From NCBI GenBank assembly GCA_965204725.1, contig OZ242005.1, positions 2,176,001 through 2,240,000 on the forward strand: a DNA stretch of 64,000 nt. Direction: 5' to 3'. Shown here piece by piece: positions 48,254 to 64,000 of this stretch; the stretch's first letter is position 1; every line of letters begins with the position of its first letter. This stretch comes from Candidatus Latescibacterota bacterium. GTDB taxonomy: Bacteria > Latescibacterota > UBA2968 > UBA8231. The position numbers and the translations under genes were made by a program. A model generated the notes under the pieces. The model was not told the DNA's origin. It searched no databases and saw nothing but the letters and a program-made list of their open reading frames with translations.

Positions 48254-49354
48254 ATGCCAACATTGAAGAATATCAAGATCAGGGGCTTTCGGTCCATTAA
48301 AGAAACGACGCTGGAACTTAGGCCGCTCAATGTTTTGATCGGCGCCAACGGGGCGGGTAAGAGCAACCTGATTGCCTTCTTCAAGCTAGTAAATGAACTA
48401 ATGGGCGGACGGCTTCAGCAGCATATTGGGGCGACCGGGCGGGCCACGGCCAACTTGCATTTTGGCCCGAGGCGAACCCCTCAATTGGAAGCGGAGATGG
48501 CGTTTGAGGTAGAGAATGGAACAGACACCTATCGGATGCGGCTGTTCCACGCGGCCGGTGATTCGATGATTTTTGCCGAAGAGACGCTTTCCTGCCAGCA
48601 AACAAATTTTTCGCGCCCAAAGGTCGTATCGCTGGGGATGGGTCATCAGGAAACGCGGATTGGCGACGAGGCTGAAAGGGACGAACCTACGGCAAAAGCA
48701 CTCAGGCATTTGCTGAACCGCTGTCGCGTCTATCACTTCCACGATACCTCGCCGGCTTCGAGAGTCCGGCAGTATTGTTACGTCGGCGACAATCGCTGGC
48801 TGATGCCCGATGCGGCGAATTTGGCCGCGATCCTACATGAACTGAAGTCCAGCAAAGAAACGGTGTATCGCCGGATCGTGAGGACCATTCGGCAGGTGGC
48901 CCCGTTCTTTGCAGACTTTGATCTAGAGCCGACCGACTCCAAAGACATCATTCTCAATTGGCGGCACTGCGAGTCCGATCGCGTTTTTGGTCCCCATCAA
49001 CTCTCGGACGGTACACTGCGGGCCATCTGCCTGATTTCGCTGTTGTTACAGCCCAAGGAAAATCTCCCCTATCTGATTGTGGTGGATGAACCGGAACTCG
49101 GATTACACCCCTACGCGCTCAATGTGATTGCCTCGCTGATTCGCGCCGCAAGCCACCATACGCAGGTTCTCGTCAGCACGCAGTCCAGCGCGTTTCTCGA
49201 CAGCTTTGAGCCGGAGGACATCGTGGTCGTTGAGCTAAAGAATGCAGCTACGGAGTTCGACCGGCTAGAGGCCGAAAAGCTCAACGCATGGTTGAAGGAC
49301 TACTCGCTCGGGGAAATCTGGGAGAAAAACGTCATTGGCGGAGGGCCGCACTGA
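48254..49354 (+). CDS. AAA_21/ABC-type ATPase (defence-associated)
   Basis: GFRSI, GANGAGKSN, LSDGTLR, DEPELGLHP, STQS, LGEIWEKN. Confidence 0.88.
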   Translation: MPTLKNIKIRGFRSIKETTLELRPLNVLIGANGAGKSNLIAFFKLVNELMGGRLQQHIGATGRATANLHFGPRRTPQLEAEMAFEVENGTDTYRMRLFHAAGDSMIFAEETLSCQQTNFSRPKVVSLGMGHQETRIGDEAERDEPTAKALRHLLNRCRVYHFHDTSPASRVRQYCYVGDNRWLMPDAANLAAILHELKSSKETVYRRIVRTIRQVAPFFADFDLEPTDSKDIILNWRHCESDRVFGPHQLSDGTLRAICLISLLLQPKENLPYLIVVDEPELGLHPYALNVIASLIRAASHHTQVLVSTQSSAFLDSFEPEDIVVVELKNAATEFDRLEAEKLNAWLKDYSLGEIWEKNVIGGGPH

Positions 49355-50037
49355 TGGCGCGACTTTACCTCTTCGCCGAAGGTTTAACCGAGCAGACGTT
49401 TGCCGATACGGTCTTGAAGCCGCATCTAGCGAACTTCGGCGTCTATATGCAGAAACCAACCTTGATTGCACACTCCCGAAGGAGGGGAAGAGTACATCGC
49501 GGCGGCGGAAGAAATTTCCCAGCGATGCAAAACGACATCAACCGCCGTCTCAAGCAGGAGTCGGGGCATGACGTATTTTTTACCACGATGATTGACCTTT
49601 ACGCCTTGCCGGCGAAATTTCCCGGCGTTGAAGAAGCGGAGAAACTGCGCCACGACCCGTATAAACGGGTGGAGGCTCTCGAAAGATCGTGGTTCGATGA
49701 GACCAGCGATCATCGCTTCATCCCGTTCATTCAGTTGCATGAGTTTGAAGCGTATTTGTTTGCTGATGTATCCCAGTTCGCTTTCTTCTTTGACAATGCC
49801 GATTCCCAAATTTCCGCTTTGCATGATGTCCAGTCCCCAGAACGGATCGACGACGGGCAACATACCGCTCCATCGAAGCGGATCATCGCCCAATTTCCCG
49901 AATACGAATCCGCGAAAACAACGGTAGGACCACAGATGGCCGAACAGATTGGCTTGGAGAACATCCGCTCCAAGTGTCCCCATTTTAAGGCGTGGGTCGA
50001 GCGACTCGAGAAACTCGGAGCACCGGAGAGATCATAA
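49354..50037 (+). CDS. DUF4276 family (TOPRIM-like) protein
   Basis: AEGLTEQTF, TTMIDLYALP, QLHEFEA, PSKRI, CPHF..W; TGATG coupling to the ATPase. Confidence 0.85.
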   Translation: MARLYLFAEGLTEQTFADTVLKPHLANFGVYMQKPTLIAHSRRRGRVHRGGGRNFPAMQNDINRRLKQESGHDVFFTTMIDLYALPAKFPGVEEAEKLRHDPYKRVEALERSWFDETSDHRFIPFIQLHEFEAYLFADVSQFAFFFDNADSQISALHDVQSPERIDDGQHTAPSKRIIAQFPEYESAKTTVGPQMAEQIGLENIRSKCPHFKAWVERLEKLGAPERS

Positions 50038-50040
50038 CAA

Positions 50041-53000
50041 GTGATGACGAAAACGACGGCGCGACGAACGGCAGCGGTTGAGACCTATCTCGCTGACCTG
50101 CAACGGGTGCGGGCTTCCGGCGGCGCAACCGGCGAGCGGTCGAGCTACGGACCGCTGGCGAGCCTGCTCAATGCCATCGGCGCAACGCTCAAGCCCAAGG
50201 TCTTTTGCGTCGGCGAGTTGGCCGATCAGGGAGCGGGGCATCCCGACTTTGGGCTGTATGCGGCCAAGCAGGTGCAGAAGGGGCAACCTAAGCAGGGACA
50301 AGTGCCGGAACGGGGCGTGGTTGAAGTGAAGGCGGCGGACGATGACGCTTGGTTGACGGCGGCGGGCGATCAGGTTAGCCGCTATTGGGGACGCTATCGG
50401 CTGGTGCTGGTGACCAATACGTGCGACTTCGTGCTCGTCGGCGAGGACGCAGCCGGGCAACCGGCGACGCTCGAAACGTTTCGGCTGGCCGAGAGTGCCG
50501 AGGAATTCGCGCAACGCTTAGAGAATCCGCGAACTTTTGCTCGCGAGGTCGGCGCGGGGTTAGGGGAATATCTGTGCCGGGCGTTGTCGCATCGGGCGCG
50601 GCTGGCCGAGCCGAAGGATTTGGCTTGGCTGTTGGCGTCTCATGCCCGCGATGCGCTGGCGCGGGTCGAGGCGGCGGGTGATGCGCCGGCATTGGCGGCA
50701 GTGCGGACGGCATTGGAAGAGGCTCTCGGCGTCCGCTTTGAGGGCGAGCGCGGTGCGCGGTTTTTTCGCTCAACGCTGGTGCAGACGCTGTTCTACGGCG
50801 TGTTCTCCGCTTGGGTGCTGTGGGCGCGGCACACGACACAGGCCGGGAAAGCGTTCAATTGGCGCGAAGCGGTCTGGCATTTGCGAGCACCCGTCATGCA
50901 GGCATTATTCCAACAACTATCGCAACCCGGTCGGCTACAACCGCTCGGCCTCGTCGAAGTGCTGAATTGGACATCTGCGGCACTCGACCGGGTGGATCGC
51001 GACGCCTTCTTTGCCCGCTTCAACGAAGGCGAGGCCGTCACCTACTTTTACGAGCCATTCCTCCAAGCCTTTGACCCTGAACTGCGGAAACAACTCGGCG
51101 TCTGGTACACGCCGTCCGAAGTAGTGCGCTACATGGTCGCCCGCGTTGACAAGGCTTTGCGGGACGATCTCGGCTTGGCCGATGGGCTGGCGGCGGAAAA
51201 CGTCTATGTGCTCGATCCATGCTGCGGCACCGGGGCCTATCTGGCCGAAGTGCTGCGCCGCATCGCCGCCAATTTGAACAATCAAGGCTTGGGTGCGCTC
51301 ACCGGCGCCCGGGTCAAACAGGCGGCAACCGAGCGCGTGTTCGGCTTCGAGATCATGCCGGCGCCGTTTGTCGTCGCCCACCTGCAAGTTGGATTGACCA
51401 TGCAGGCACTCGACGCAGCCCTATCCGATGACGGGCAGGAACGCGCCCAAGTGTTTCTGACCAACGCACTAACCGGCTGGGAGCCGCGTCCGAGCAAGCC
51501 GCTGCCTTTTCTCGAACTGGAGGAGGAACGCGACCGGGCTGAGCGGGTCAAACAGGACACGCCGATCTTGGTGATCTTGGGCAATCCGCCCTACAACGGC
51601 TTTGCGGGGATGGCGATGGACGAAGAGCGGGAACTGTCGGTCGCCTATCGCACGACCAAGCGGGTGCGCCGCCCTGAAGGGCAAGGGCTCAACGACCTCT
51701 ACATCCGCTTTTTCCGCATGGCTGAGCGACGCATTGCCCAGACTGGTCGAGGCATGGTGTGCTTCATTTCCAACTATTCTTGGCTTGATGGGCTGTCGCA
51801 TACGGGAATGCGGGAACGCTATTTGGAGACATTTGACGCGATACGGATTGACTGCTTGAACGGCGACAAGTTCAAGACCGGCAAGGTCGCGCCGGATGGC
51901 TCGCCGGACCCAAGCATCTTTTCGACAGCGGACGATCCGGTCGGCATTCAGGTAGGCACTGCCATTGCGACGCTGGTACGTAAGCTCGACCACGCGCCAA
52001 CCGAGGCGGTCGGATTTCGGCATCTATGGGGGCAGGCCAAGCGCGAGGAGTTGCTTGAGACGGAGGAAGTGGAACCGGAAAAGCTCTACGAAAACATCGA
52101 TCCAGTGTTGCCGCTCGGCCTGCCGTTTGTACCAACGGCTGTCAGCAAGGATTGGTTCGACTGGCCGGCCCTGCCCGATTTATTTCCGGTATCCTTCCCG
52201 GGCGTGAATACCAGCCGCGACCCATTTCTCGTCGATACCGATCTCGACCGGCTCAAGGCGCGGCTGGCCGATTACTTCGATGCGAGTCTGAGCCATGACG
52301 AGATTGCGCGGCACTATCCAATCGTAATGAAAACCACGAGACGTTTCGACGCTCGCAAGGTACGCGACGCGCTGCTCGGACGCGGCTGGCCGATTGATGC
52401 TGGATTTATCCGCTTTACGTACCGGCCTTTTGACATTCGCTGGCTCTATTGGGAGGCAGAGACGAAACTGCTGGACGAAAAGCGTGCCGACTACAAGCCG
52501 CATGTGTTCGAGGGAAACGTCTGGCTGTCTGCCGCACAGCACCTGCGCCGAGACGCCAACCAGCCGCAAGCCTGTTTCACAAAAATCATGGCCTCGGGGC
52601 ACCTGATTGAGCGCGGCGCAAGCATGTTCCCCGCCTATCTGCGCGAGGAGGGCGATCTCAGCAATGGTGGCCAAGCCAGCACCCGCCCCAACCTATCGCC
52701 GGCCGCCCAACGCTACCTCAAGCATCTCGGTGCGACCGTCGAAGACCTCTTCTACCACGCCCTCGCCACTCTCCACGATCCCGCGTATCGCACGGCCAAT
52801 GCCGGAGCACTCAAGATGGAATGGCCGCGCATCCCCCTGCCGGGCTGGCCTGATAGCAAGACGGACAGTGCCGCCGAGACGCTCGCTACCTCCGCAGCAC
52901 GGGGTCGCGAGTTGGCCCGCCTGCTCGACCCCGACGCCCCCGTGCCGGGCGTGACCCAAGGCACGTTGCGTCCCGAGATCGCCGCCCTCGCCGTGCCCGC

Positions 53001-53394
53001 CACTACCGATAGCCGCAACATGACGGGCGACGATTTCGCGCTCACCGCCGGATGGGGCCATTTCGCAACGGGCGACGCCGTAATGCCGGGGCAAGGCCGC
53101 CTCATCGAGCGCGATTACACCCCGGACGAACGCGCCGCGCTGGGCGATGCCATCCCCGCCCTCGGCGCAAAGACGCTGGATGTGTACCTGAATGACCGCG
53201 CCTTCTGGCGCAACGTGCCCGCCGCGATTTGGGACTACAAACTCGGCGGCTACCAAGTCCTCAAGAAATGGCTCTCCTACCGCGAACACGCTGTGTTGGG
53301 ACGAGTGCTGACGCCGGAGGAAGTGCAGTACTTTGCGGAGATGACGAGGAGGATTGGAGGGATGTTGAAATCGACACGATCCCCTGATGGATGA
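50041..53394 (+). CDS. Type IIG/ISP-like restriction-modification enzyme, copy 1
   Basis: N-terminal PDFG..VEVK nuclease-like motif, GVWYTP, DPCCGTG, GNPPY N6-MTase, YRPFD..W, GGYQVLKKWL (Type ISP C-terminal-like). No helicase motifs. Confidence 0.9.
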   Translation: MMTKTTARRTAAVETYLADLQRVRASGGATGERSSYGPLASLLNAIGATLKPKVFCVGELADQGAGHPDFGLYAAKQVQKGQPKQGQVPERGVVEVKAADDDAWLTAAGDQVSRYWGRYRLVLVTNTCDFVLVGEDAAGQPATLETFRLAESAEEFAQRLENPRTFAREVGAGLGEYLCRALSHRARLAEPKDLAWLLASHARDALARVEAAGDAPALAAVRTALEEALGVRFEGERGARFFRSTLVQTLFYGVFSAWVLWARHTTQAGKAFNWREAVWHLRAPVMQALFQQLSQPGRLQPLGLVEVLNWTSAALDRVDRDAFFARFNEGEAVTYFYEPFLQAFDPELRKQLGVWYTPSEVVRYMVARVDKALRDDLGLADGLAAENVYVLDPCCGTGAYLAEVLRRIAANLNNQGLGALTGARVKQAATERVFGFEIMPAPFVVAHLQVGLTMQALDAALSDDGQERAQVFLTNALTGWEPRPSKPLPFLELEEERDRAERVKQDTPILVILGNPPYNGFAGMAMDEERELSVAYRTTKRVRRPEGQGLNDLYIRFFRMAERRIAQTGRGMVCFISNYSWLDGLSHTGMRERYLETFDAIRIDCLNGDKFKTGKVAPDGSPDPSIFSTADDPVGIQVGTAIATLVRKLDHAPTEAVGFRHLWGQAKREELLETEEVEPEKLYENIDPVLPLGLPFVPTAVSKDWFDWPALPDLFPVSFPGVNTSRDPFLVDTDLDRLKARLADYFDASLSHDEIARHYPIVMKTTRRFDARKVRDALLGRGWPIDAGFIRFTYRPFDIRWLYWEAETKLLDEKRADYKPHVFEGNVWLSAAQHLRRDANQPQACFTKIMASGHLIERGASMFPAYLREEGDLSNGGQASTRPNLSPAAQRYLKHLGATVEDLFYHALATLHDPAYRTANAGALKMEWPRIPLPGWPDSKTDSAAETLATSAARGRELARLLDPDAPVPGVTQGTLRPEIAALAVPATTDSRNMTGDDFALTAGWGHFATGDAVMPGQGRLIERDYTPDERAALGDAIPALGAKTLDVYLNDRAFWRNVPAAIWDYKLGGYQVLKKWLSYREHAVLGRVLTPEEVQYFAEMTRRIGGMLKSTRSPDG

Positions 53395-53404
53395 GACATT
53401 CAAG

Positions 53405-53614
53405 ATGAAACCCACCGCATACATCGAGACATCGATCACCAGCTATCTCACCGCGAGACCTTCCCGAGATGTCGTGGTCACAGCGTATCAGCAAGGGTGG
53501 CGCAACGCTCGGGACTGATTTGACCTCGTCGCGTCAGAGCTTGTTATCGCCGAAGCCAGTGCCGATGATACATGTACCCCCAACGAACTAATGGAACCCG
53601 GAACCCAACCATGA
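53405..53614 (+). pseudogene. PIN-domain toxin relic (N- and extreme C-terminus)
   Basis: MKPTAYIETSITSYLTARPSRDVVV...RD*FDLVASELVIAEAS, then a deletion, then CTPNELME. Confidence 0.75.
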
Positions 53615-53805
53615 AGCCATCACAACCCGAGCCGGTCATCGCTGAAATCCGAACCGTCCGCGACCCACACGCGGCCCGGTTTGGTTACGACGTCAAAGCA
53701 ATTTTCAGAGACATTCAAGCCAGACAAGAGGCTTCTGGTCGCCAATACGTCCGCTACCCCGCTCGCCGCACAGCCCCTGAGTCCGGAGCTCAGGCGACCC
53801 GGTGA
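53611..53805 (+). CDS. Small putative antitoxin partner of the PIN toxin
   Basis: EPVIAEIRTVRD.HAARFGYDVKAIFRDIQARQ, a pattern I recognise from small ORFs following this PIN family. Confidence 0.55.
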   Translation: MKPSQPEPVIAEIRTVRDPHAARFGYDVKAIFRDIQARQEASGRQYVRYPARRTAPESGAQATR

Positions 53806-53831
53806 GATCGGCTGGCCAAAGTCTCTCGTGT

Positions 53832-53944
53832 TGGGGGATGGCCTTTGCCGGATTGGTGCCGATCATGGCCCCGACGATGCTGGTGTACACTTTCTTGCAG
53901 CAATACCTGACAAAGAGGATTCCTATTGGGCACTCAAGAGGTAG
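53832..53944 (+). pseudogene. 3' fragment of a carbohydrate ABC permease (degenerate)
   Basis: WGMAFAGLVPIMAPTMLVYTFLQQYLTK, with a 1-nt deletion near the end. Confidence 0.65.
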
Positions 53945-53959
53945 AAAGGGCCGTGATCG

Positions 53960-56900
53960 GTGATGACGAAAACGACGGCGCGACTAACGGCAGCGGTTGA
54001 GACCTATCTCGCTGACCTGCAACGGATTCGTTCATCGGGCGGCGCAACCGGCGAGCGGTCGAGCTACGGACCGCTGGCGAGCCTGCTCAATGCCATCGGC
54101 GCAACGCTCAAGCCCAAGGTCTTTTGCGTCGGCGAGTTGGCCGATCAGGGAGCGGGGCATCCCGACTTTGGGCTGTACTCGGCCAAGCAGGTGCAGAAGG
54201 GGCAACCGAAACAGGGACAAGTGCCCGAAGGGGGTGTGGTTGAAGTGAAGGCGGCGGACGATGACGCTTGGTTGACGGCGGCGGGCGATCAGGTCAGCCG
54301 CTATTGGGAACGCTATCGGCTAGTGCTGGTGACCAATACGTGCGACTTCGTGCTCGTCGGCGAGGATGCGGCCGGGCAACCGGCTACGCTCGAAACGTTC
54401 CGGTTAGCTCAAGGTGCGGAGGAATTCGACCGTCGATTGGAGACGCCGCGTGCTTTTGCTCGCGAGGTCGGCGCGGGTTTAGGGGAATATCTGTGCCGGG
54501 CACTGGCGCATCGGGCGCGGCTGGCCGAGCCGAAGGATTTGGCTTGGCTGTTGGCGTCTCATGCCCGCGATGCGTTGGCGCGGGTCGAGGCGGCGGGCGA
54601 TGCGCCGGCGTTGGCAGCAGTGCGGACGGCATTGGAAGAGGCCCTCGGTGTCCGCTTTGAGGGCGAGCGCGGCGCACGGTTTTTCCGTTCAACGCTGGTG
54701 CAGACGCTGTTCTACGGCGTGTTCTCCGCTTGGGTGCTGTGGGCGCGGCACACGTCCGGGGCCGCTCGGTTCGACTGGCGCACGGCGGTCTGGCATCTAC
54801 GGGCACCGGTGCTACGGGTGCTGTTCCAACAAATCTCCGATCCCGGTCGGCTGTACCCGCTCGGCCTCGTCGAAGTGCTGGACTGGACGGCTGCTGCACT
54901 CGACCGAGTGGATAGAGACGCCTTCTTCGCCCGCTTCAACGAAGGCGAGGCCGTCACCTACTTTTACGAGCCGTTCCTCCAAGCCTTTGATCCCGAACTG
55001 CGGAAACAACTCGGCGTCTGGTACACGCCATCCGAAGTAGTGCGCTACATGGTCGCTCGCGTGGACCAAGCCCTCCGGGACGATCTCGGCTTGGCCGACG
55101 GGCTGGCCGCGGAAAACGTCTATGTGCTCGATCCATGCTGCGGCACGGGAGCGTATCTGGCCGAAGTGCTGCGCCGCATCGCCGCCAATTTGAACAATCA
55201 AGGCTTGGGGGCGCTGGCGGGTGCCCGAGTCAAGCAGGCGGCAACCGAGCGCGTGTTCGGCTTTGAGATTATGCCCGCGCCGTTTGTCGTCGCCCATCTG
55301 CAAGTTGGGTTGACCATGCAGGCACTCGACGCGGCCCTGTCCGATGACGGAACGGAACGCGCCCAAGTGTTTCTGACTAATGCGCTGACCGGCTGGGAGC
55401 CGCGTCCGAGCAAGCCGCTGCCTTTTCTCGAACTGGAGGAGGAACGCGACCGGGCTGAGCGGGTCAAGCAGGACACGCCGATCTTGGTGATCTTGGGCAA
55501 TCCACCTTACAACGGTTTTGCGGGGATGGCGATGGACGAAGAGCGGGCATTATCAGAAGCCTATCGCACGACCAAACGGGTGCGCCGTCCCGAAGGGCAA
55601 GGGCTGAACGACCTCTACATCCGCTTTTTCCGCATGGCCGAACGACGCATTGCCCAGACCGGCCAAGGCGTCGTGTGCTTCATTTCCAACTATTCGTGGC
55701 TCGACGGGCTGTCGCATACCGGGATGCGGGAACGCTATTTGGAGACATTTGACGCGGTTCGGATTGACAATCTGCACGGCGACCGCATCATCTCGGAGTA
55801 TGCACCCGATGGGCGGACCAGCGAAACCGTCTTTGCGCTTCAGGGACAATCGCCGGGCATTCGGGTTGGCACCAGCATCGCCATGCTTTCCAAGTCGGGA
55901 ACCGCCGATCTATCGACACGCCGACGCATTCTGTATCGCGATCTCCATCAGGCCAGAGCGGATGAAAGACGACAAGCCCTGTTGGACAGCCTCGACGCCG
56001 AAATTGATGCAGGCTATACCGCATTGAAACCCAATTTTCGCCTCGGCTTGCCATTCAAGCCAGCGGCTGTCAGCGAAGATTGGTTCGACTGGCCGGCCCT
56101 GCCCGACCTGTTTCCAGTGTCGTTCCCCGGCGTCAAAACCAGCCGCAACGGATTCCTCATCGACATTGACCTCGACCCGCTCAAGGCGCGGATCAACGAA
56201 TACTTCAACGCGGAGTTGCGCCCCGACGACATCGCCCGCCGCCATCCGGCCATCATGCAGCAATCCGCGCTGTTCGACGCCCACGCCGTGCGCGCTGAAC
56301 TGCTGGCCCGCGGCGGACCCAACCCCGCCGGGTTCATCCGCCATACCTATCGACCCTTTGACCAGCGCTGGCTGTATTGGGAAGCCGATTCAAAGCTGCT
56401 CGACCGACCGCGCCCCCAGTACAAGCCGCATATATTCGAGGGGAATCTGTGGCTGTCTGCCGCGCAGCACCTGCGCCGCGACGCCAACCAGCCGCAAGCC
56501 TGTTTCACAAAAATCATGGCCTCGGGGCACCTGATTGAGCGCGGCGCGAGCATGTTCCCCGCCTATCTGCGCGAGGAGGGCGACCTCAGCAATGGCGGTC
56601 AGGCCAGCACCCGCCCCAACCTATCGCCCGCTGCCCAACGCTATCTCAAGCATCTCGGCGTGACCGTCGAAGACCTCTTCTACCACGTCCTCGCCACCCT
56701 CCACGATCCCGCGTATCGCACGGCCAATGCCGGGGCACTCAAGATGGAATGGCCGCGCATCCCCCTGCCGGGCTGGCCCGATGGCAAGGCGGACAGCGCA
56801 GCCGAGACGCTCGCTACCTCCGCAGCACGGGGCCGCGAGTTGGCCCGCCTGCTCGATCTCGACGCCTCCGTGCCGGGCGTGACCCAAGGCGCATTGCGCC

Positions 56901-57322
56901 CAGAGATCGCCACCCTCGCCGTGCCCTCCACTACCGATAGCCGCAACATGGCCGGCGACGATTTCGCGCTCACCGCCGGATGGGGCCATTTCGCACCGGG
57001 CGACGCGGTGATGCCGGGTCAAGGCCACCTCGTCGAGCGCGATTACACCCCGGACGAACGCGCCGCGCTGGGCGATGCCATCCCCACCCTCGGCGCAAAG
57101 ACGCTGGACGTGTACCTGAACGACCGCGCTTTCTGGCGCAACGTGCCCGCCACAATTTGGGACTACAAACTCGGCGGCTACCAAGTCCTCAAAAAATGGC
57201 TCTCCTACCGCGAACACGCTGTGTTAGGACGGGTGCTGACGCCGGAGGAAGTGCGGTACTTTGCGGAGATGACGCGGCGGATTGGGGCGATATTGAAATC
57301 GACACGATCCCCTGATGGATGA
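53960..57322 (+). CDS. Type IIG/ISP-like restriction-modification enzyme, copy 2
   Basis: Near-identical to copy 1 except two divergent post-MTase segments. Confidence 0.9.
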   Translation: MMTKTTARLTAAVETYLADLQRIRSSGGATGERSSYGPLASLLNAIGATLKPKVFCVGELADQGAGHPDFGLYSAKQVQKGQPKQGQVPEGGVVEVKAADDDAWLTAAGDQVSRYWERYRLVLVTNTCDFVLVGEDAAGQPATLETFRLAQGAEEFDRRLETPRAFAREVGAGLGEYLCRALAHRARLAEPKDLAWLLASHARDALARVEAAGDAPALAAVRTALEEALGVRFEGERGARFFRSTLVQTLFYGVFSAWVLWARHTSGAARFDWRTAVWHLRAPVLRVLFQQISDPGRLYPLGLVEVLDWTAAALDRVDRDAFFARFNEGEAVTYFYEPFLQAFDPELRKQLGVWYTPSEVVRYMVARVDQALRDDLGLADGLAAENVYVLDPCCGTGAYLAEVLRRIAANLNNQGLGALAGARVKQAATERVFGFEIMPAPFVVAHLQVGLTMQALDAALSDDGTERAQVFLTNALTGWEPRPSKPLPFLELEEERDRAERVKQDTPILVILGNPPYNGFAGMAMDEERALSEAYRTTKRVRRPEGQGLNDLYIRFFRMAERRIAQTGQGVVCFISNYSWLDGLSHTGMRERYLETFDAVRIDNLHGDRIISEYAPDGRTSETVFALQGQSPGIRVGTSIAMLSKSGTADLSTRRRILYRDLHQARADERRQALLDSLDAEIDAGYTALKPNFRLGLPFKPAAVSEDWFDWPALPDLFPVSFPGVKTSRNGFLIDIDLDPLKARINEYFNAELRPDDIARRHPAIMQQSALFDAHAVRAELLARGGPNPAGFIRHTYRPFDQRWLYWEADSKLLDRPRPQYKPHIFEGNLWLSAAQHLRRDANQPQACFTKIMASGHLIERGASMFPAYLREEGDLSNGGQASTRPNLSPAAQRYLKHLGVTVEDLFYHVLATLHDPAYRTANAGALKMEWPRIPLPGWPDGKADSAAETLATSAARGRELARLLDLDASVPGVTQGALRPEIATLAVPSTTDSRNMAGDDFALTAGWGHFAPGDAVMPGQGHLVERDYTPDERAALGDAIPTLGAKTLDVYLNDRAFWRNVPATIWDYKLGGYQVLKKWLSYREHAVLGRVLTPEEVRYFAEMTRRIGAILKSTRSPDG

Positions 57323-57327
57323 GACAT

Positions 57328-57432
57328 CTCACACAGAAGTTACTCGAGCAGAGAGCGGTCCCCCACACGGCTGCGGAAGATGCGGCTCATATTGCCATCG
57401 CCGTTGCAAACGGAGTCCGTTATCTTGTAACC
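57328..57432 (+). pseudogene. PIN-domain toxin relic (central part)
   Basis: Translates LTQKLLEQRAVPHTAAEDAAHIAIAVANGVRYLVT. Confidence 0.75.
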
Positions 57433-57503
57433 CGCTCGCCGCACAGCCCCTGAGCCGAAGCTCAGGCGACCCGGTGAGATCGGCTGGCCAAAGTCTCTCG
57501 TGT

Positions 57504-57617
57504 TGGGGGATGGCCTTTGCCGGGTTGGTGATGATCATGGCCCCGACGATGCTGGTGTACGCTTTCTTGCAGCAATACCTGACGAAGGGGATTACTGTTG
57601 GGGCACTCAAGAGGTAG
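57504..57617 (+). pseudogene. 3' fragment of a carbohydrate ABC permease
   Basis: WGMAFAGLVMIMAPTMLVYAFLQQYLTKGITVGALKR*, a MalG-type C-terminus. Confidence 0.7.
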
Positions 57618-57634
57618 AAAGGGGGCGGCGGTAG

Positions 57635-60600
57635 GTGATGACGAAAACGACGGCGCGACTAACGGCAGCGGTAGAAACCTATCTCGCTGACCTGCAACGG
57701 GTGCGGGCTTCGGGCGGCGCAACCGGCGAGCGGTCGAGCTACGGACCGCTGGCGAGCCTGCTCAATGCCATCGGCACAACGCTCAAGCCCAAGGTCTTTT
57801 GCGTCGGCGAGTTGGCCGATCAGGGAGCGGGGCATCCCGACTTTGGGCTGTACTCGGCCAAGCAGGTGCAGAAGGGGCAACCTAAGCAGGGACAAGTGCC
57901 AGAACGGGGCGTGGTTGAAGTGAAAGCGGCGGACGATGACGCTTGGTTGACGGCAGCAGGCGATCAGGTTAGCCGCTACTGGGGACGCTATCGGCTGGTG
58001 CTGGTGACCAATACGTGCGACTTCTTGCTCGTCGGCGAGGATGCGGCCGGGCAACCGGCGACGCTCGAAACGTTCCGGCTGGCCGAGAGTGCCGAGGAAT
58101 TCGCACAACGATTGGAGACGCCGCGAACTTTTGCTCGCGAGGTCGGCGCGGGGTTAGGGGAATATCTGTGCCGGGCGTTGTCGCATCGGGCGCGGCTGGC
58201 CGAGCCGAAGGATTTGGCTTGGCTGTTGGCGTCTCATGCCCGCGATGCGCTGGCGCGGGTCGAGGCGGCGGGCGATGCGCCAGCGTTGGCGGCGGTGCGG
58301 ACGGCACTGGAAGAGGCCCTCGGCGTCCGCTTTGAGGGCGAACGCGGAGCGCGGTTTTTCCGTTCAACGCTGGTGCAGACGCTGTTCTACGGCGTGTTTT
58401 CCGCTTGGGTGCTGTGGGCGCGGCACACGTCCGGGGCCGCTCGGTTCGACTGGCGCACGGCGGTCTGGCATTTGCGGGCACCCGTCATGCAGGCATTGTT
58501 CCAACAACTATCGCAACCCGGTCGGTTACAACCGCTCGGCCTCGTTGAAGTGCTCGACTGGACGGCTGCTGCGCTCGACCGAGTAGATCGCGACGCCTTC
58601 TTTGCCCGCTTCAACGAGGGCGAGGCCGTCACGTATTTCTACGAGCCGTTCCTCCAAGCCTTTGACCCCGAATTGCGGAAACAACTCGGCGTCTGGTACA
58701 CGCCATCCGAAGTGGTGCGCTACATGGTCGCCCGCGTGGACCAAGCCCTGCGGGACGATCTCGGCTTGGCCGATGGGCTGGCCGCAGAAAACGTCTATGT
58801 GCTCGATCCCTGCTGCGGCACCGGGGCCTATCTGGCCGAAGTCCTGCGCCGCATCGCCGCTAATTTGAACAATCAAGGCTTGGGTGTGCTGGTGGGTGCC
58901 CGGGTCAAGCAGGCGGCGACCGAGCGCGTGTTCAGCTTCGAGATTATGCCGGCGCCTTTTGTCGTCGCCCATCTGCAAGTCGGGTTGACCATGCAAGCAC
59001 TTGACGCAGCCTTGGCCGATGACGGAGCGGAACGCGCCCAAGTGTTTCTGACCAACGCGTTGACCGGCTGGGAGCCGCGCCCGAGCAAGCCGCTGCCTTT
59101 TCTCGAACTGGAGGAGGAACGCGACCGGGCTGAGCGGGTCAAGCAGGACACGCCGATCTTGGTGATCTTGGGCAATCCACCCTACAACGGTTTTGCGGGG
59201 ATGGCGATGGACGAAGAGCGGGCATTATCAGAAGCCTATCGCACGACCAAGCGGGTGCGCCGTCCCGAAGGGCAAGGGCTCAACGACCTCTACATCCGCT
59301 TTTTCCGCATGGCCGAGCGACGCATTGCCCAGACCGGCCAAGGCGTGGTGTGCTTCATTTCCAACTACTCGTGGCTCGACGGGCTGTCGCATACGGGAAT
59401 GCGGGAACGCTATTTGAAGACATTTGACGCAGTTCGGATTGACTGCTTGAACGGCGACAAGTTCAAGACCGGCAAGGTTGCGCCGGATGGTTCGCCGGAC
59501 CCGAGCATTTTTTCGACGGCGGACGATCCGGTCGGCATTCAGGTAGGCACTGCCATTGCGACGCTGGTGCGTAAACTCGATCACGCGCCAACCGAGGAGG
59601 TCGGCTTTCGGCATCTGTGGGGGCAGGCCAAGCGGGAGGAGTTGCTTGAGACGGAGGAAGTGGAACCGGGAAAGCTCTACGAGCACATCGATCCAGTGTT
59701 GCCGCTCGGCTTGCCGTTTGTACCAACGGCCGTCAGCGAAGATTGGTTCGACTGGCCGGCCCTGCCCGACCTGTTCCCGGTGTCGTTCCCCGGCGTCAAG
59801 ACCAGCCGCAACGGATTCCTCATCGACATTGACCTCGACCCGCTCAAAGCACGAATCGACGATTACTTCAACGCGGAGTTGCGCCATGAGGCCATCGCCC
59901 GCCGCCATCCGGCCATCATGCAGCAATCCGCGCTGTTCGACGCCCACGCCGTGCGCGCTGAACTGCTCGCTCGCGGCGGACCCAACCCCGCCGGATTCAT
60001 CCGCCATACCTACCGACCCTTTGACCAGCGCTGGCTGTATTGGGAAGCCGATTCAAAGCTGCTCGACCGACCGCGCCCCCAGTACAAGCCGCATATATTC
60101 GAGGGGAATCTGTGGCTTTCCGCCGCGCAGCACCTGCGCCGCGATGCCAACCAGCCACAAGCCTGTTTCACGAAAATCATGGCCTCGGGGCACCTGATTG
60201 AGCGCGGCGCGAGCATGTTCCCCGTCTATCTGCGCGAGGAGGGCGACCTCAGCAATGGCGGTCAAGCCAGCACCCGCCCCAACCTATCACCGACCGCCCA
60301 ACGCTACCTCAAGCATCTCGGCGCGACCGTCGAAGACCTCTTCTACCACGTCCTCGCCACCCTCCACGATCCCGCGTATCGCACGGCCAATGCCGGAGCA
60401 CTCAAGATGGAATGGCCGCGCATCCCCCTGCCGGGCTGGCCCGATAGCAAGACGGACAGTGCCGCCGAAACGCTCGCGGCATCAGCGACGCGAGGGCGCG
60501 AACTGGCTAGTCTGCTCGATCCCGACGCCTCCGTGCCGGGCGTGACCCAAGGCACGTTGCGCCCAGAGATCGCCGCCCTCGCCATGCCATCCACCACTGA

Positions 60601-60976
60601 CGGTCGCAACATGACCGGCGACGATTTCGCGCTCACCGCCGGGTGGGGCCATTTCGCACCGGGCGACGCGGTGATGCCGGGTCAAGGCCACCTCGTCGAG
60701 CGCGATTACACCCCGGACGAACGCGCCGCGCTGGGCGATGCCATCTCCGTGCTCGGCGAAAAGACGCTGGACGTGTATCTGAACGACCACGCCTTCTGGC
60801 GCAACGTGCCCGCCGCAATTTGGGACTACAGACTCGGCGGCTACCAAGTCCTCAAGAAATGGCTCTCCTACCGCGAGCACACTGTGTTGGGACGGGTGCT
60901 GACGCCGGAGGAAGTGCGGTACTTTGCGGAGATGACGAGGCGGATTGGGGCGATGTTGCTGATGACCTATATGTAA
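57635..60976 (+). CDS. Type IIG/ISP-like restriction-modification enzyme, copy 3 (mosaic)
   Basis: Segment A matches copy 1 and segment B matches copy 2. Confidence 0.9.
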   Translation: MMTKTTARLTAAVETYLADLQRVRASGGATGERSSYGPLASLLNAIGTTLKPKVFCVGELADQGAGHPDFGLYSAKQVQKGQPKQGQVPERGVVEVKAADDDAWLTAAGDQVSRYWGRYRLVLVTNTCDFLLVGEDAAGQPATLETFRLAESAEEFAQRLETPRTFAREVGAGLGEYLCRALSHRARLAEPKDLAWLLASHARDALARVEAAGDAPALAAVRTALEEALGVRFEGERGARFFRSTLVQTLFYGVFSAWVLWARHTSGAARFDWRTAVWHLRAPVMQALFQQLSQPGRLQPLGLVEVLDWTAAALDRVDRDAFFARFNEGEAVTYFYEPFLQAFDPELRKQLGVWYTPSEVVRYMVARVDQALRDDLGLADGLAAENVYVLDPCCGTGAYLAEVLRRIAANLNNQGLGVLVGARVKQAATERVFSFEIMPAPFVVAHLQVGLTMQALDAALADDGAERAQVFLTNALTGWEPRPSKPLPFLELEEERDRAERVKQDTPILVILGNPPYNGFAGMAMDEERALSEAYRTTKRVRRPEGQGLNDLYIRFFRMAERRIAQTGQGVVCFISNYSWLDGLSHTGMRERYLKTFDAVRIDCLNGDKFKTGKVAPDGSPDPSIFSTADDPVGIQVGTAIATLVRKLDHAPTEEVGFRHLWGQAKREELLETEEVEPGKLYEHIDPVLPLGLPFVPTAVSEDWFDWPALPDLFPVSFPGVKTSRNGFLIDIDLDPLKARIDDYFNAELRHEAIARRHPAIMQQSALFDAHAVRAELLARGGPNPAGFIRHTYRPFDQRWLYWEADSKLLDRPRPQYKPHIFEGNLWLSAAQHLRRDANQPQACFTKIMASGHLIERGASMFPVYLREEGDLSNGGQASTRPNLSPTAQRYLKHLGATVEDLFYHVLATLHDPAYRTANAGALKMEWPRIPLPGWPDSKTDSAAETLAASATRGRELASLLDPDASVPGVTQGTLRPEIAALAMPSTTDGRNMTGDDFALTAGWGHFAPGDAVMPGQGHLVERDYTPDERAALGDAISVLGEKTLDVYLNDHAFWRNVPAAIWDYRLGGYQVLKKWLSYREHTVLGRVLTPEEVRYFAEMTRRIGAMLLMTYM

Positions 60977-62484
60977 TGTCTAAACGGCAACGGTGGCAGA
61001 TCAGGAACAGGTGCAGCAGTAAGAATCTCACCTACTGCATCAGCAAACTTGAGTGTAACAGGCTGTCCGTCTGCGAACTGACAGGTATTGAAGTTGATCT
61101 TGGTTAGGCCCATCACATCCGTCATAACCCTGAGCAGATCTGCATCGCCTCTGTGGATTTCGACTAGTAGAGGATTGGGCACCTCCCAACCGGGATAGGT
61201 ATCGAGCCGAGGTGTAAAACCCTTGGTCCAAAGGTATCCTCTTCGTTTTGTCGAAAGGTATGCAGTACCACGCAACACGGGCATTTTACTCGATCGATAG
61301 AGCTTCAGCTCACTAGTTGGGCGAATACGTACCCCGACTAGGTTGGTCTCGTTTGGGACAACACCTCTGAAACCTTCCCACTCATCGTTGTTAAATCTCG
61401 TTTTGCCGTGAATAAAAAGCTCAGTAGGCGGCTCTCCGTGGAGGTCTCGATATGACTTCACCACTAGGCTCATCAACTCAGAGGCTTTCTCCTTGCTAAG
61501 GTGAAATTCGTGCGTATCCTTCGAGAACCAAGGACCAACTGCACCTCTGAAAACAACGCCATCTCCCGAGTCCAAAAACATTTGAGCACCGCAACAGGCA
61601 TTGCCGGCGGCTAGGTCGGTACTATCCATCTTGTAAACTAATCCTACGTAGCAGACCCCTAGTCGGACCGACGCTAGTTTCCACGGTTTGCCACTGGCCT
61701 TGAAGAACGCTGTCGTGCAGAGGTTCCAAGCGATTGTGGCGGGGTCTTCTGGTTCACGGATTAGGTGCCCATCTCGAGTGAATCGGTGAGGCGTAAGTGT
61801 CGTGTCGCGTACAATCTGAAGGACAGCTCTCTGTTCCAAGAGACGCGCTTTCATCTGGTGGTGAAAATTAAGCTCGTAGCGGTAAATTTCTGCGGCTTCT
61901 CGATCGTCAAAAAAAAGCGAACCTTCGCGGAGAATCCGCCGTCCGGCCTTCGCGGAGAAAGGCTGGTTTCCTGTAATGCGCTCTTCCTTCGGTACAACTG
62001 ACTTAGGTCGCCCATAGCGGTAAACCTCTTCCGGTATGATAACGAACCACATGGTAGGCGGTGCTTCGTCTTGACGTAAATGCCTGCGTATCGGCTCTTC
62101 AAAAAGCTCGACAGTCTTGTATATTGCTTCGTGCCGATCAGTAAGCCGGATTGAAGTACGGACATCATCTTCCAAGACAGTTAGTTCAACTAGAGGGTCT
62201 TCTGGCCACTGAGCACCAAAAACGGCTTGGAATCCAGGCCAACCAGCGTGGTGAGGTTCATTCGGGTTCTTGGACGGAATGTAGCGTCGAATACTTTCTA
62301 CCCATTCGCGAAAGCAGTTCAGACCATTCGGCGTCCCAATGACGCCGATACGCATTTCGGCAGGGTTAGCTTTATCATCCCAAGGGCCGAACAGGAAAAG
62401 TCCGTCCTTCGGGTGTTCCACCTCTTGGCCGTAGCGGAAGCCTAATCGTGGCTCTTTGATGTGTTGGAGCAACGAGTCTGTCAT
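60967..62484 (-). CDS. Short prokaryotic Argonaute (MID-PIWI, catalytically inactive; SPARTA-like)
   Basis: 505 aa; EPRLGF..DGLFLFGP, FHHQMKARLL, WNLCTTAFFKASGKPWKL, CYVGLVYK, GLTKINFN, PVTLKFADAVGEIL, PLPFRHYI. Confidence 0.9.
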   Translation of the reverse strand: MTDSLLQHIKEPRLGFRYGQEVEHPKDGLFLFGPWDDKANPAEMRIGVIGTPNGLNCFREWVESIRRYIPSKNPNEPHHAGWPGFQAVFGAQWPEDPLVELTVLEDDVRTSIRLTDRHEAIYKTVELFEEPIRRHLRQDEAPPTMWFVIIPEEVYRYGRPKSVVPKEERITGNQPFSAKAGRRILREGSLFFDDREAAEIYRYELNFHHQMKARLLEQRAVLQIVRDTTLTPHRFTRDGHLIREPEDPATIAWNLCTTAFFKASGKPWKLASVRLGVCYVGLVYKMDSTDLAAGNACCGAQMFLDSGDGVVFRGAVGPWFSKDTHEFHLSKEKASELMSLVVKSYRDLHGEPPTELFIHGKTRFNNDEWEGFRGVVPNETNLVGVRIRPTSELKLYRSSKMPVLRGTAYLSTKRRGYLWTKGFTPRLDTYPGWEVPNPLLVEIHRGDADLLRVMTDVMGLTKINFNTCQFADGQPVTLKFADAVGEILTAAPVPDLPPLPFRHYI

Positions 62485-63243
62485 GCCCCCTCTTCGTATT
62501 CTTCGTCTTCAGAGTCGAGAATATAGTCAGAATCTGTTTCATTCAAGTCCCTGTTGAAATCATCCAGAGCGTCAGCCTCCGTTTCGTCTTCTGCATGGTC
62601 TTCTTCAACTGTGGCCCCTGAGCCTTTCTCAGTAATAGACAGAGGAGCCTCAAAGCTCATCGGAGAAGCGGCTATTGTCGCCACGGCGTCTCCTCCCAGA
62701 GCTAGGGAGAATTCCTCTTTGCCGTTTGCTAGGTCCGCTACAAAAGCGCGAAGCAGGTCGCGCCAACGATCATTCCACCAATTCTTGCAGAAACTCTTTC
62801 GTAGGCGATCAGCGCGAGATCGGCTATCGAGCGGCGTCTTACCATCTTGGGTAAAGACGACGTGAGTGCGCAAGGTAAGGTGACGTGGGTCAGCGATGCT
62901 GATCTTGTCTGACACCGCAAAGTGCCAATAGACGCCTCTTTTTTCGCTTCGGCCAACTAGCCGCCGTCGCCGTCTCTTGCCGTTCTCATCTTGAAAAATG
63001 GCAATGTTTTCTTCGATTAGATTGAGGGGAACGAACCACGCGCTTCCGTGTGCAAATTTATAAAGCAATAGGCCGTGACTCCGTGCGAATTGCTCCCATG
63101 CCTTGCGGAGAAGTCCAGTTACCATGTTTCGAGCATCCCACCAAGAGACTTGGCCCTGACCATTAAGAAATTGTGCCAGCGGAACACAATAAGCGTGTTC
63201 AAGTGGAATATCGGGAGTTTCCATTTGAAGCGTATCCGCATTA
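62481..63243 (-). pseudogene. APAZ-domain partner of the short pAgo, C-terminal part, interrupted by an IS5 element
   Basis: YWHFAVS, HVVFTQDGK, KNWWNDRWRDLL, acidic tail; ATGA coupling to ago. Upstream of 63243 the frame runs into the IS. Confidence 0.8.
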
Positions 63244-64000
63244 GAAGCTATCTCATAAATACCGTAGCAGTATGAGGATGCATCCGAGTTGTACAAAGCC
63301 GAGGTAGTTTTCAGCATAGTATTCGTATCGAACCACGATGCGGCGGAAGTTATGCAACCAAGCAAACAGTCTTTCTATTTTCCAGCGTCTTTTGTAGCCC
63401 CGCAACCGCCGCCCGTCCTGGGTTTTGGCCTGCGTACGATTGCGGCGATGCGGCGCGATCATCTCAATGCCTTGGTCGGCCAGGCTCGCATCCAATCGAT
63501 CCGAGTCGTAGGCTCGGTCCCCGATGAGTCGTTGCGGTCGGGGCTGGACCCATCGGTTTTCCAGGGTGGCTTCTACGAGGGTGACTTCGTGCGGCGAAGC
63601 ACTTTGGATGAGTACGGCGATAGGAAGACCAGCGCGGTCTGCCACTGCCATGAGCTTCGTACCTTTGCCCCGCTTGGTCGGACCCACTTGGTCCCCCCTT
63701 TTTTCGCCGCGACAAACAGGCCATCGATGAAGCATTCGCTCACATCAAGGCCCCCGCGCTCATGCAAGTCGTGCGCGAGGGTGCGCAGAATATGTTCAAA
63801 GGTGCCATCAGACGACCACTGTTGGAATCGACGATGGCAGGTCTGGTAGGACGGATAGCGAGCAGGCAGGTCATGCCCAGGCGCCCCGGTGCGGAGAATC
63901 CACAGAATACCATTGAGCACCGCTCGGTTACAACGCCACGGACGACCCCGGCCATCGCGGCGTTTGGGACACGCCGGCAGCAGTGGGGACACTATCGACC
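63244..64000 (-). mobile_element. IS5-family (IS427-like) insertion sequence, partial
   Basis: End GAAGCTATCTCATAA next to TTA; two overlapping transposase ORFs. Confidence 0.88.
63253..64000 (-). CDS. IS5 transposase (orfA/orfB joined by a -1 frameshift)
   Basis: orf[22 protein letters not shown]; A6G6 slippery tract at 63693-63704; orf[23 protein letters not shown]. Confidence 0.9.

Follow-up and report, generated by a model that had tools for sequence, protein, structure and literature searches.

Within a 64,000-nucleotide window of contig OZ242005.1 (positions 2,176,001 to 2,240,000 of the forward strand; the window is the whole stretch of DNA that was analysed, and coordinates below refer to it unless stated otherwise), a Candidatus Latescibacterota bacterium from a sponge-type microbial community carries three related genes for single-chain restriction-modification (R-M) enzymes in tandem. 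The genes probably form a stable array of three functional paralogous Type IIL R-M enzymes and not an active generator of new specificities, because the blocks that they share are old (synonymous divergence, dS, 0.14-0.22) and the genes are under purifying selection. Copy 1 (c1; 50041..53394, 1117 residues), copy 2 (c2; 53960..57322, 1120 residues), and copy 3 (c3; 57635..60976, 1113 residues) are arranged head to tail on the forward strand, each an open reading frame (ORF) without internal stops. The start of c1 is 3 nt after the end of the gene for HEC-01B, a DUF4276 protein, and c3, whose terminal residues are unlike those of c1 and c2, overlaps with its 3′ end the end of a convergent prokaryotic Argonaute (pAgo) gene. 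Repeat families in the array are spaced 3919/3675 to 3928/3663 nt apart. In a whole-protein alignment c2 is 86% and c3 92% identical to c1, and the backbones of the three copies share 93-96% protein identity. A preliminary description of this DNA had presented the genes as intact and nearly identical outside two variable blocks. They are intact, but they are less alike than this implies: the copies differ in ~7% of bases, backbone dS is 0.20-0.31, and DNA identity per 90-nt window is ~77-100% (most windows 88-99%, a few down to 77%), with no long near-identical tracts between copies.

By sequence, c1 to c3 are classed as single-chain Type IIL/IIG R-M enzymes that appear closest to DrdV. Pfam finds N6_Mtase and Type_ISP_C in each copy (E 9.6e-40 in c1; Type_ISP_C at E 1e-40 to 8e-44 over residues 713-1087 in the copies), together with weaker matches to Eco57I and MmeI_Mtase. 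PADLOC Type IIG models match the copies from residue 15 onward at E 1e-84 to 1e-91, with REase_MTase_IIG at E 1.8e-87 in c1 and model PDLC03610 aligning from residue 15. DrdV (7lo5) is the closest solved relative of c1 in a sequence search (E 1.9e-30), and it also ranks first with a profile of 45 relatives (E 8.6e-46) and by Foldseek (E 8.7e-24 over ~1200 columns, an alignment that covers DrdV and the query end to end, from a weak query model). LlaBIII and LlaGI come next, matched in the methyltransferase and recognition parts alone, and MmeI and BpuSI rank far lower. The AlphaFold2 model of c1 served for the Foldseek ranking only and not for placing tracts on DNA. The nuclease residues E32, P68-D69, and E95-V-K97 are present in all three copies and invariant in 45/45 aligned relatives, as are motif I (D392-G398) and NPPY (515-518). 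At the level of motifs, each polypeptide would therefore combine an N-terminal PD-(D/E)XK nuclease with a predicted gamma-class N6-adenine methyltransferase bearing S-adenosylmethionine motif I and NPPY, fused to a target-recognition domain at the C terminus (Type_ISP_C; alignment to the recognition domain of DrdV).

The genes had earlier been labeled Type IIG/ISP-like. The single-chain Type IIG class is upheld, but membership in Type ISP is not, because a helicase domain was not found: neither Pfam nor NCBIfam gives a helicase or ATPase family in any copy, and LlaGI and LlaBIII are matched only in the methyltransferase and recognition domain (chain positions 846-1439 of 1578). Identity as a BREX PglX protein was also rejected, with NCBIfam BREX_2 PglX scoring 17-22 bits against a cut-off of 400. 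Only weak methylase-domain matches to MADS2 and PglX, far under their cut-offs, were returned by NCBIfam for the copies. Among the neighbors scanned with Pfam, NCBIfam, and PADLOC there is no hsdS-like ORF and, beyond such weak methylase-domain matches, no BREX family. The genome carrying the array (G000; other G numbers denote related genomes searched) also holds at least five more distant single-chain methylase-nuclease homologs of 29-33% identity with open frames of ~1040-1120 residues (e.g. C1:4860908-4863640), and therefore carries a large load of Type IIG-like genes.

The two variable blocks are distributed among the copies in different combinations. In block A (residues 604-692 of c1), c1 and c3 are 97% identical and c2 is 29% identical to both; in block B (residues 722-822), c2 and c3 are 95% identical and c1 is 60-61% identical to both. 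Alignment of the three genes and a search for breakpoints located the corresponding runs of informative sites. Tract A, at 51853-52135 in c1 (residues 605-699), 55769-56063 in c2, and 59444-59726 in c3, spans by homology the last part of the methyltransferase domain together with the loop of that domain that contacts bases. Tract B, at 52147-52521 in c1 (residues 703-827), 56075-56449 in c2, and 59738-60112 in c3, all on the forward strand, corresponds by homology to the N-terminal part of the target-recognition domain. Block identities and informative sites thus both bear out the A1B1, A2B2, and A1B2 combinations that had been proposed for c1, c2, and c3. The switch of c3 from c1-like to c2-like sequence falls at c1 positions 52136-52146 (residues 700-702), in the first third, not the middle, of what the preliminary description called a conserved linker of ~90 bp. 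Conservation of this linker holds at the protein level and not in the DNA, with dS of 0.74-1.04 for c1 versus c2 or c3 (~21 synonymous sites).

Polymorphic sites among c1 to c3 (577 of 3336 aligned columns) are strongly clustered by pattern. In a test with 5000 shuffles of site order, adjacent informative sites share the same pattern in 379 cases, compared with 204.2 ± 11.0 after shuffling, and 0/5000 shuffles reach 379. Outside residues 601-822 there are still 157 same-pattern neighbors versus 100.9 ± 8.2, with 0/5000 shuffles reaching 157. The mosaic therefore exceeds chance. A further crossover had been suspected near an HTTQ/HTSG motif, and it is real: 14 consecutive sites at which c1 is the odd copy (50836-50868) are followed by eight at which c2 is (50892-50905). 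This third mosaic patch, at 50836-50976 (c1 residues 266-312) and its equivalents in c2 and c3, lies in the helical connector and is also a peak of variability across the family (entropy 1.32 at residues 261-280). With an offset of ~50 residues, extrapolated and not aligned, the patch falls near the DrdV dimer interface, given as residues 224-259 in the available part of the DrdV preprint, and it might influence which paralogs pair.

Both variable tracts overlap positions that, by homology, contact bases in solved relatives, in agreement with the earlier proposal that the region after the methyltransferase motif carries recognition. The available part of the DrdV preprint lists N448, Q485, K486, K488, N548, R554, and D564 as base contacts in the methyltransferase domain and N673, R721, Y764, D803, and K807 in the recognition domain, and for LlaGI and LlaBIII the contacts, the base position read by each, and the rules of their covariation are described (PMC5587805). 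In tract A, LlaGI Q1118 and K1131, which read the base 3′ of the methylated adenine, align with K610 and S625 (K and S in c1 and c3, R and T in c2), and DrdV N548, R554, and D564 also fall here, with the equivalents of N548 and D564 differing in c2. In tract B, LlaGI N1228 and DrdV N673 (position 2) align with S725, which is invariant, and positions 723, 727, and 728 around it differ (N, D, and P in c1 vs K, N, and G in c2 and c3). DrdV R721 aligns with R767 (R in c1, A in c2 and c3); LlaGI R1286 (position 0) aligns with the invariant D770, whose neighbors 767-768 and 772-773 differ; LlaBIII R1327, which reads G at position 0, aligns with position 813 (E in c1, R in c2 and c3), and LlaGI N1327 also aligns within tract B; and DrdV Y764 aligns with position 816 (A in c1, P in c2 and c3).

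The remaining contact positions are identical in c1 to c3. These are E546 and Q548, aligned with LlaGI S1056 and LlaBIII N1056 and N1058 (position 1, minor groove); R815, aligned with LlaGI R1329 (position 1); and H854, R858, and G859, aligned with LlaGI H1368, G1372, and Q1373 (position 3) and with DrdV D803 and K807. By the rule that PMC5587805 gives for the histidine, H854 would predict a C two bases 5′ of the adenine in the sites of all three enzymes. Because both tracts cover some contact positions and shared parts of the proteins cover the rest, the three enzymes are likely to have related but different target sites, with c3 a hybrid of the other two. TaqII and TaqIII, which are 93% identical, have different cut sites (PMC5587805), and differences far smaller than those seen here therefore suffice to change a recognition site.

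Trees of separate segments conflict with one another. Matches at E <= 1e-20 were found in 36 of 61 genomes including G000, and in 21 of the 30 genomes of the same genus. The orthologs have 69-88% protein identity and occur singly, or as two genes at distant places (G001, G002, and G023); no relative with its copies on one contig has a second copy within 10 kb, and the fragmented genomes G008, G021, and G029 could not be judged in this respect. The alignment had 23 rows, c1 to c3 and 20 orthologs, after G044 was dropped by a motif filter, and G008 (cut at the N terminus) and G029 (frameshifted) were each omitted from the tree of the part that they lack. For both the N part (residues 10-600) and the C part (residues 823-1105), c1 to c3 form one clade (support in the Shimodaira-Hasegawa-like approximate likelihood ratio test, SH-aLRT, 99 and 96), with G027 as the sister of this backbone clade (SH-aLRT 100 and 99). 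In the tree of tract A, c1 and c3 group with G019 (SH-aLRT 99) and c2 groups with G027 (99), in a class set off by a branch of 5.9 substitutions per site. In the tree of tract B, c2 and c3 (SH-aLRT 97) group with G027 (99) and c1 stands apart. The array therefore presents discrete variable segments in different combinations with conflicting trees (SH-aLRT 96-100), and this conflict, together with the clustering of site patterns, supports the earlier suggestion that the mosaic arose by recombination.

The nearest relatives of the individual tracts are found both inside and outside the array. Block A of c3 is nearest to c1 and block B to c2, but both blocks of c2 are closest to the single gene of G027 (98% of residues in A, 89% in B), and the best match to tract B of c1 in the whole family is an 85% match in a Bryobacterales record. 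These relationships do not support the idea of exchange purely within the array, with c2 tracts closest to G027 and tract B of c1 to other phyla. Between c2 and G027, dS is 0.18 in tract A and 0.23 in tract B compared with 0.41 in the N backbone, so that tracts and backbone have different histories and some donors lay outside the array.

Tandem arrays of this kind recur in other lineages. A scan of a genome collection gave 223 relatives, and the best 80 of these 223, at 66-87% protein identity, were examined as loci with flanks of up to 10 kb. Titles of these 80 records name Latescibacterota, Alpha- and Gammaproteobacteria, Binatia, orders of Acidobacteriota, Chloroflexota, Entotheonella, Nitrospinota, Rhodothermales, Longimicrobiales, Spirochaetia, and Candidatus Synechococcus spongiarum, and several sequencing runs that contain the family are labeled sponge metagenome. 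Identity of 66-87% across about a dozen phyla indicates that lateral transfer has recently carried the family very widely within a single type of habitat. Most loci (71/80) have one match. Three of the 80 contain tandem full copies: L053 has three, L099 has two and a truncated third, and L096 has two. Another three (L032, L049, and L071) have a full copy with a C-terminal fragment, one is interrupted (L093), and two are frameshifted (L091 and L097). The array members of L053, like those of L099, share 91-96% identity in the N backbone and differ in the recognition region, the nearest relatives of which are in other genomes; the copies of L096 differ mainly in residues 1-240. Loci L023-L102 represent one Type IIL family in about a dozen phyla, often with two or three dispersed copies per chromosome (three in OZ251459.1).

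Among 90 distinct full-length relatives, clustering at 65% identity gives 8 clusters for tract A, 14 for tract B, and 44 for residues 823-900, a region that is the entropy peak of the family yet identical in c1 to c3. Tract A falls into two deep classes (29% identity) and tract B into several. Out of the 90 relatives, 45 combine A1 with the B1 class, three A1 with B2, two A2 with B2, and two A2 with the B1 class. The last combination, found by looking for it in related genomes, occurs in G022 and G013, which are sister species within the same genus, and A2B1 is thus not a missing product of the array, as had been predicted. Tentatively, and with well under an even chance, the array could be one instance of a strategy of the whole family in sponge-type communities: a DrdV-like Type IIL gene would pass from phylum to phylum, undergo tandem amplification again and again, and act as a combinatorial specificity generator at the level of the population. 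Its recognition surface would then consist of at least three sub-modules (tract A, tract B, and the hypervariable residues 823-900), exchanged at conserved anchor sequences between members of an array and alleles that arrive from elsewhere. If such a strategy exists, the natural chimeras A1B1, A2B2, and A1B2 would let the recognition code be read by position.

The age of the shared segments bears most directly on whether the array itself generates specificities. Between c1 and c3, dS in tract A is 0.22, and between c2 and c3 it is 0.14 in tract B; the backbones have dS of 0.24-0.31 in the N part and 0.20-0.29 in the C part. Copies that share a segment have dN/dS (the ratio of nonsynonymous to synonymous divergence) of 0.05-0.17 (0.07-0.17 for the segments just listed), and all copies are under purifying selection. 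The dS values and the low dN/dS together indicate that the genes were kept functional long after the exchanges. If the array were instead an active generator that works without a recombinase, frequent exchange between copies would keep making combinations of A and B, among them A2B1. Several features fit such a process. The mosaic runs through the whole gene, as the shuffles outside residues 601-822 show; identity between pairs reaches 98-100% in some windows, over a background of 90%, as later conversion would produce; the arrays and residual C-terminal fragments of other lineages suggest that arrays grow and shrink; and all four combinations of A1 or A2 with B1 or B2 classes are found in the family. 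However, the shared tracts are not recent, with dS like that of the backbones, donors outside the array are needed (tracts of c2 are nearer to G027 than its backbone is, and tract B of c1 has its 85% match in Bryobacterales), the linker DNA is not conserved between c1 and the other copies, and, among the relatives searched whose copies share a contig, none has a pair of close copies less than 10 kb apart.

The position of the hybrid also argues against such a generator, since A1B2 lies last in the array and not in the middle. A single unequal crossover as the origin of the array was rejected on the same geometric ground, because from two genes it would have placed the hybrid in the middle. Nor does the array resemble a programmed switching locus, with inverted partial cassettes and a recombinase or with simple repeats. 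There are no simple-sequence repeats in the genes, where the sole tandem repeat is a 24-nt, 1.9-copy match; repeat analysis of the array, in which all copies are direct and full length, gives no inverted cassettes, although no separate inverted-repeat scan was made; and no site-specific recombinase or silent cassettes are involved, the sole recombinase-like gene being an insertion sequence (IS)-type DDE transposase at 63253-63998. Of the earlier phrase “recombinase-free specificity generator”, then, the first half is apt, with no recombinase, inverted repeats, or silent cassettes taking part, but active generation does not agree with old tracts and purifying selection. We consider an active generator quite improbable, and rare ongoing conversion, which could account for the 90-nt windows that are 98-100% identical between copies, is compatible with a stable array.

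The spacers between the genes record at least one local duplication. Spacer 1 (53395..53959, forward strand) consists of a downstream-type region, like that in G012 and G002a with its two small ORFs, joined to a ~120-nt remnant (53831-53950) that derives from the 3′ terminus of a sugar ABC permease gene. Spacer 2 (57323..57634, forward strand) has the same junction with an internal deletion, and its permease remnant is at 57503-57634. The two spacers match over 197 nt at 93.9% identity, and both join coordinate 770 of the G012 locus to coordinate 6167. The remnants correspond to the final 120-130 nt of the permease gene, whose intact 3′ end is present elsewhere in G000 (C1:1354857-1354988), and this permease gene directly precedes the R-M gene in G021, G028, and G013. 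The presence of one novel junction twice points to at least one tandem duplication of a unit with its old flanks. The left end of the array (HEC-01 followed by the gene) and its right end (the gene followed by pAgo) are colinear with the single-gene locus of G019.

Several further features of the spacers were observed. In several sister species (loci L004, L006, and L017) the island, or the gene with pAgo, lies directly after the sugar ABC permease gene. The permease site of G000 (C1:1354857-1355020), ~870 kb from the array, lacks the gene, and the array holds two permease 3′-end remnants, so that the island appears to have moved from one chromosomal site to another. The small ORFs of spacer 1, at 53387-53518 (43 residues) and 53572-53805 (77 residues), are conserved at ~83-86% DNA identity downstream of the ortholog in G012 and G002a, match no Pfam family at E <= 0.1, and could be remnants of a small two-gene module. 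An ORF at 57315-57617 in spacer 2 was treated as spurious, with no Pfam, NCBIfam, or PADLOC family. A promoter and terminator scan of 53300-57700 gave one site of each kind, no more than in shuffled sequence and neither in a spacer, and such a scan is uninformative for this phylum.

An alternative origin for the array is that its members are pseudoparalogs, three differing alleles acquired separately by horizontal gene transfer and integrated side by side through their homology, after which gene conversion partly homogenized the backbones while selection kept the specificity tracts apart. The presence of the family at 66-87% protein identity in many phyla is consistent with this origin, as are the disagreement between the dS of tracts and backbone relative to G027 and the flanks of the copies, with remnants at c2 and c3 linked to the permease and c1 linked to HEC-01. 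The available part of PMC8163846 reports that R-M genes pass laterally between sponge symbionts, and TaqII and TaqIII have been discussed as possible pseudoparalogs (PMC5587805). Separate acquisition does not, however, explain the identical novel junction in both spacers, which needs at least one local duplication, and it is at odds with backbones that are mutually nearest in both the N and C parts and with the tracts of c3, whose nearest relatives lie inside the array. We therefore view three separate acquisitions as unlikely, although less so than continuing generation.

It is also conceivable, as the preliminary description had pointed out, that strain alleles of a single-copy gene were wrongly joined in tandem during assembly, given that the genome is of the metagenome type with an estimated contamination of 9.97%. 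The genome is, however, in two contigs, the copies differ by ~7% in DNA and are separated by distinct spacers, and unique pieces of B1, spacer 1, A2, and spacer 2 recur in the contigs of four sequencing runs, which belong to four studies. In two of the four runs the listed pieces have 0 differences, and pieces cross the ends of c1 and c2 into the spacers. Tandem arrays of the same family in other complete chromosomes argue in the same direction, and an artefact of assembly is thus highly improbable. One contig of run X3 that would join 52934 to 57173 was set aside as unreliable, with a shorter side of 22 letters that is out of homologous register.

Several observations weigh against a stable array of functional paralogs that arose by duplication. 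The run contigs that support the assembly are <1 kb within the array, and none bridges a whole gene. The flanking HEC-01 genes of G000 and G027 differ by ~5%, less than the ~7% between copies, yet G027 is single-copy; G027 may have lost copies, the copies may have entered already diverged, or the genes may evolve faster. The monophyly of the backbones could result from gene conversion instead of common descent. No permease remnant was found before c1, as there is before c2 and c3, and the array is therefore not a simple triple duplication but also involved recombination between HEC-01-linked and permease-linked copies. With respect to function, contacts were transferred through HMMER alignments at ~20-30% identity, the DrdV and LlaGI templates disagree by up to three residues near residues 767-770, and the AlphaFold2 model of c1, built with 45 close relatives, has a mean predicted local distance difference test score (pLDDT) of 63.8, with values <50 in the methyltransferase domain, and a predicted template modeling score of 0.43.

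For the stable array, we propose the following model. Each enzyme would both protect and restrict its own asymmetric site, as its predicted domains suggest, and the copies would share one backbone and one set of central-base contacts. Tract A would be the methyltransferase-domain loop that, by analogy with relatives, may read the base 3′ of the target adenine, and tract B the opening part of the recognition domain, used by relatives to read the 5′ bases; c3 could then combine the 5′ reading of c2 with the 3′ reading of c1. The array may have been born by tandem duplication of a unit bearing pieces of its former flanks, and the tracts may then have been replaced by homologous recombination or gene conversion at conserved anchor sequences, with donors within the array and in other lineages. 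These exchanges would be old, and the three genes would since have been kept by purifying selection.

The array is set in a defense island, between a HEC-01 pair and a short pAgo system. The HEC-01 pair, a candidate defense system (48254..50037, forward strand), consists by Pfam of an AAA_21 ATPase (48254-49354) and a DUF4276 protein (49288-50037), recognized by PADLOC as HEC-01A (E 5e-141) and HEC-01B (E 3.5e-74). A HEC-01 gene precedes the single ortholog in G027, G019, G022, G023a, and G007. Here, as in five sister species (loci L002, L008, L011, L012, and L015), the HEC-01 pair lies directly before the Type IIL gene, and HEC-01 may be functionally linked to this R-M gene. The HEC-01 ATPase also matches MAD3, of the methylation-associated defense system, at E 2.5e-30, below the cut-off. 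On the other side of the array, the short pAgo gene (60967-62484, reverse strand; PADLOC pAgo_I, E 2.7e-212) is convergent with c3, and pAgo follows the single ortholog in G019, G007, G029, G021, and G008. Its partner is an APAZ-type ORF (62481-63365, reverse strand) that matches the TIR-APAZ model at profile positions 214-436 of 443 only. This ORF is without the TIR part, and directly upstream of it, at the end of the window, are two overlapping IS4/IS5-type transposase ORFs on the reverse strand with DUF4096 (63573-63998) and DDE_Tnp_1 (63253-63735); an insertion sequence may have cut the APAZ-type gene and disabled the pAgo system.

Single-chain Type IIL enzymes are those whose recognition can be re-engineered one residue at a time, as described in the available parts of work on the MmeI family and in the analysis of TaqII and TaqIII (PMC5587805). 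Against this background the array is a natural experiment: two segments are swapped on a single backbone, a natural hybrid is included, and every member has long been kept functional. The methylation motifs of the three enzymes would link base positions to tracts A and B in the DrdV-like branch, and the array is chiefly of value as a natural guide to the way in which DrdV-like enzymes encode recognition. It also suggests that a single cell can keep multiple specificities in the form of complete enzymes encoded in tandem, an arrangement that recurs in unrelated phyla sharing a habitat. The array does not imply a new mechanism, because its elements are already published: segment reassortment is known from the available part of PMC3077401, coexisting Type IIG paralogs with different sites from PMC5587805, and lateral spread of R-M genes in sponge symbionts from the available part of PMC8163846. 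In the literature covered, which was partial and excluded supplements, we did not find a description of a tandem set of complete Type IIL enzymes, of chimeras made from sub-domain tracts with one inside the methyltransferase domain, or of such an arrangement recurring in several phyla.

The closest known enzyme, DrdV, has the same order of PD-ExK nuclease, helical connector, NPPY N6-adenine methyltransferase, and C-terminal recognition domain, and the available part of its preprint likewise splits base contacts between the methyltransferase and recognition domains. In contrast to DrdV, to which they are ~19-30% identical, the array enzymes are ~90 residues longer and have nuclease acidic residues spaced as D69...E95 instead of D64...E79, and the parts of the literature available for DrdV and MmeI do not describe tandem arrays of either. 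LlaGI and LlaBIII (PDB 5FFJ and 4XQK) are homologous to the array enzymes in the methyltransferase and recognition domain (E 1.8e-38 and 5.7e-37 by profile), but the array enzymes, at ~1115 vs ~1570 residues, are without the RecA-like helicase/translocase and the Mrr-type nuclease. TaqII and TaqIII, Type IIC/IIG enzymes of Thermus aquaticus, are two paralogs of ~1100 residues in one genome that are 93% identical and have different sites, with specificity set by a few positions homologous to LlaGI and LlaBIII contacts (PMC5587805). Unlike the array genes, they are on two separate plasmids, their differences are point-like and not in two cassettes, and there is no hybrid third member. Inverting hsdS shufflons, such as those of Mycoplasma pulmonis, also have several specificity modules at one locus, but according to the available part of PMC3077401 these are inverted partial genes that switch at a high rate by site-specific recombination, whereas the copies of the array are direct, complete, and old. 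In the domain movement of Type I and Type IIG systems, as set out in the available part of Furuta et al, 2011 (PMC3077401), variable segments between conserved sequences give combinatorial alleles with no dedicated recombinase identified. There, the comparison is among alleles of one locus, and the units are entire TRD1 and TRD2 domains of a separate S subunit; in contrast, the units of the array are two sub-segments within a single-chain enzyme, one of them in the methyltransferase domain, that are kept side by side as full genes.

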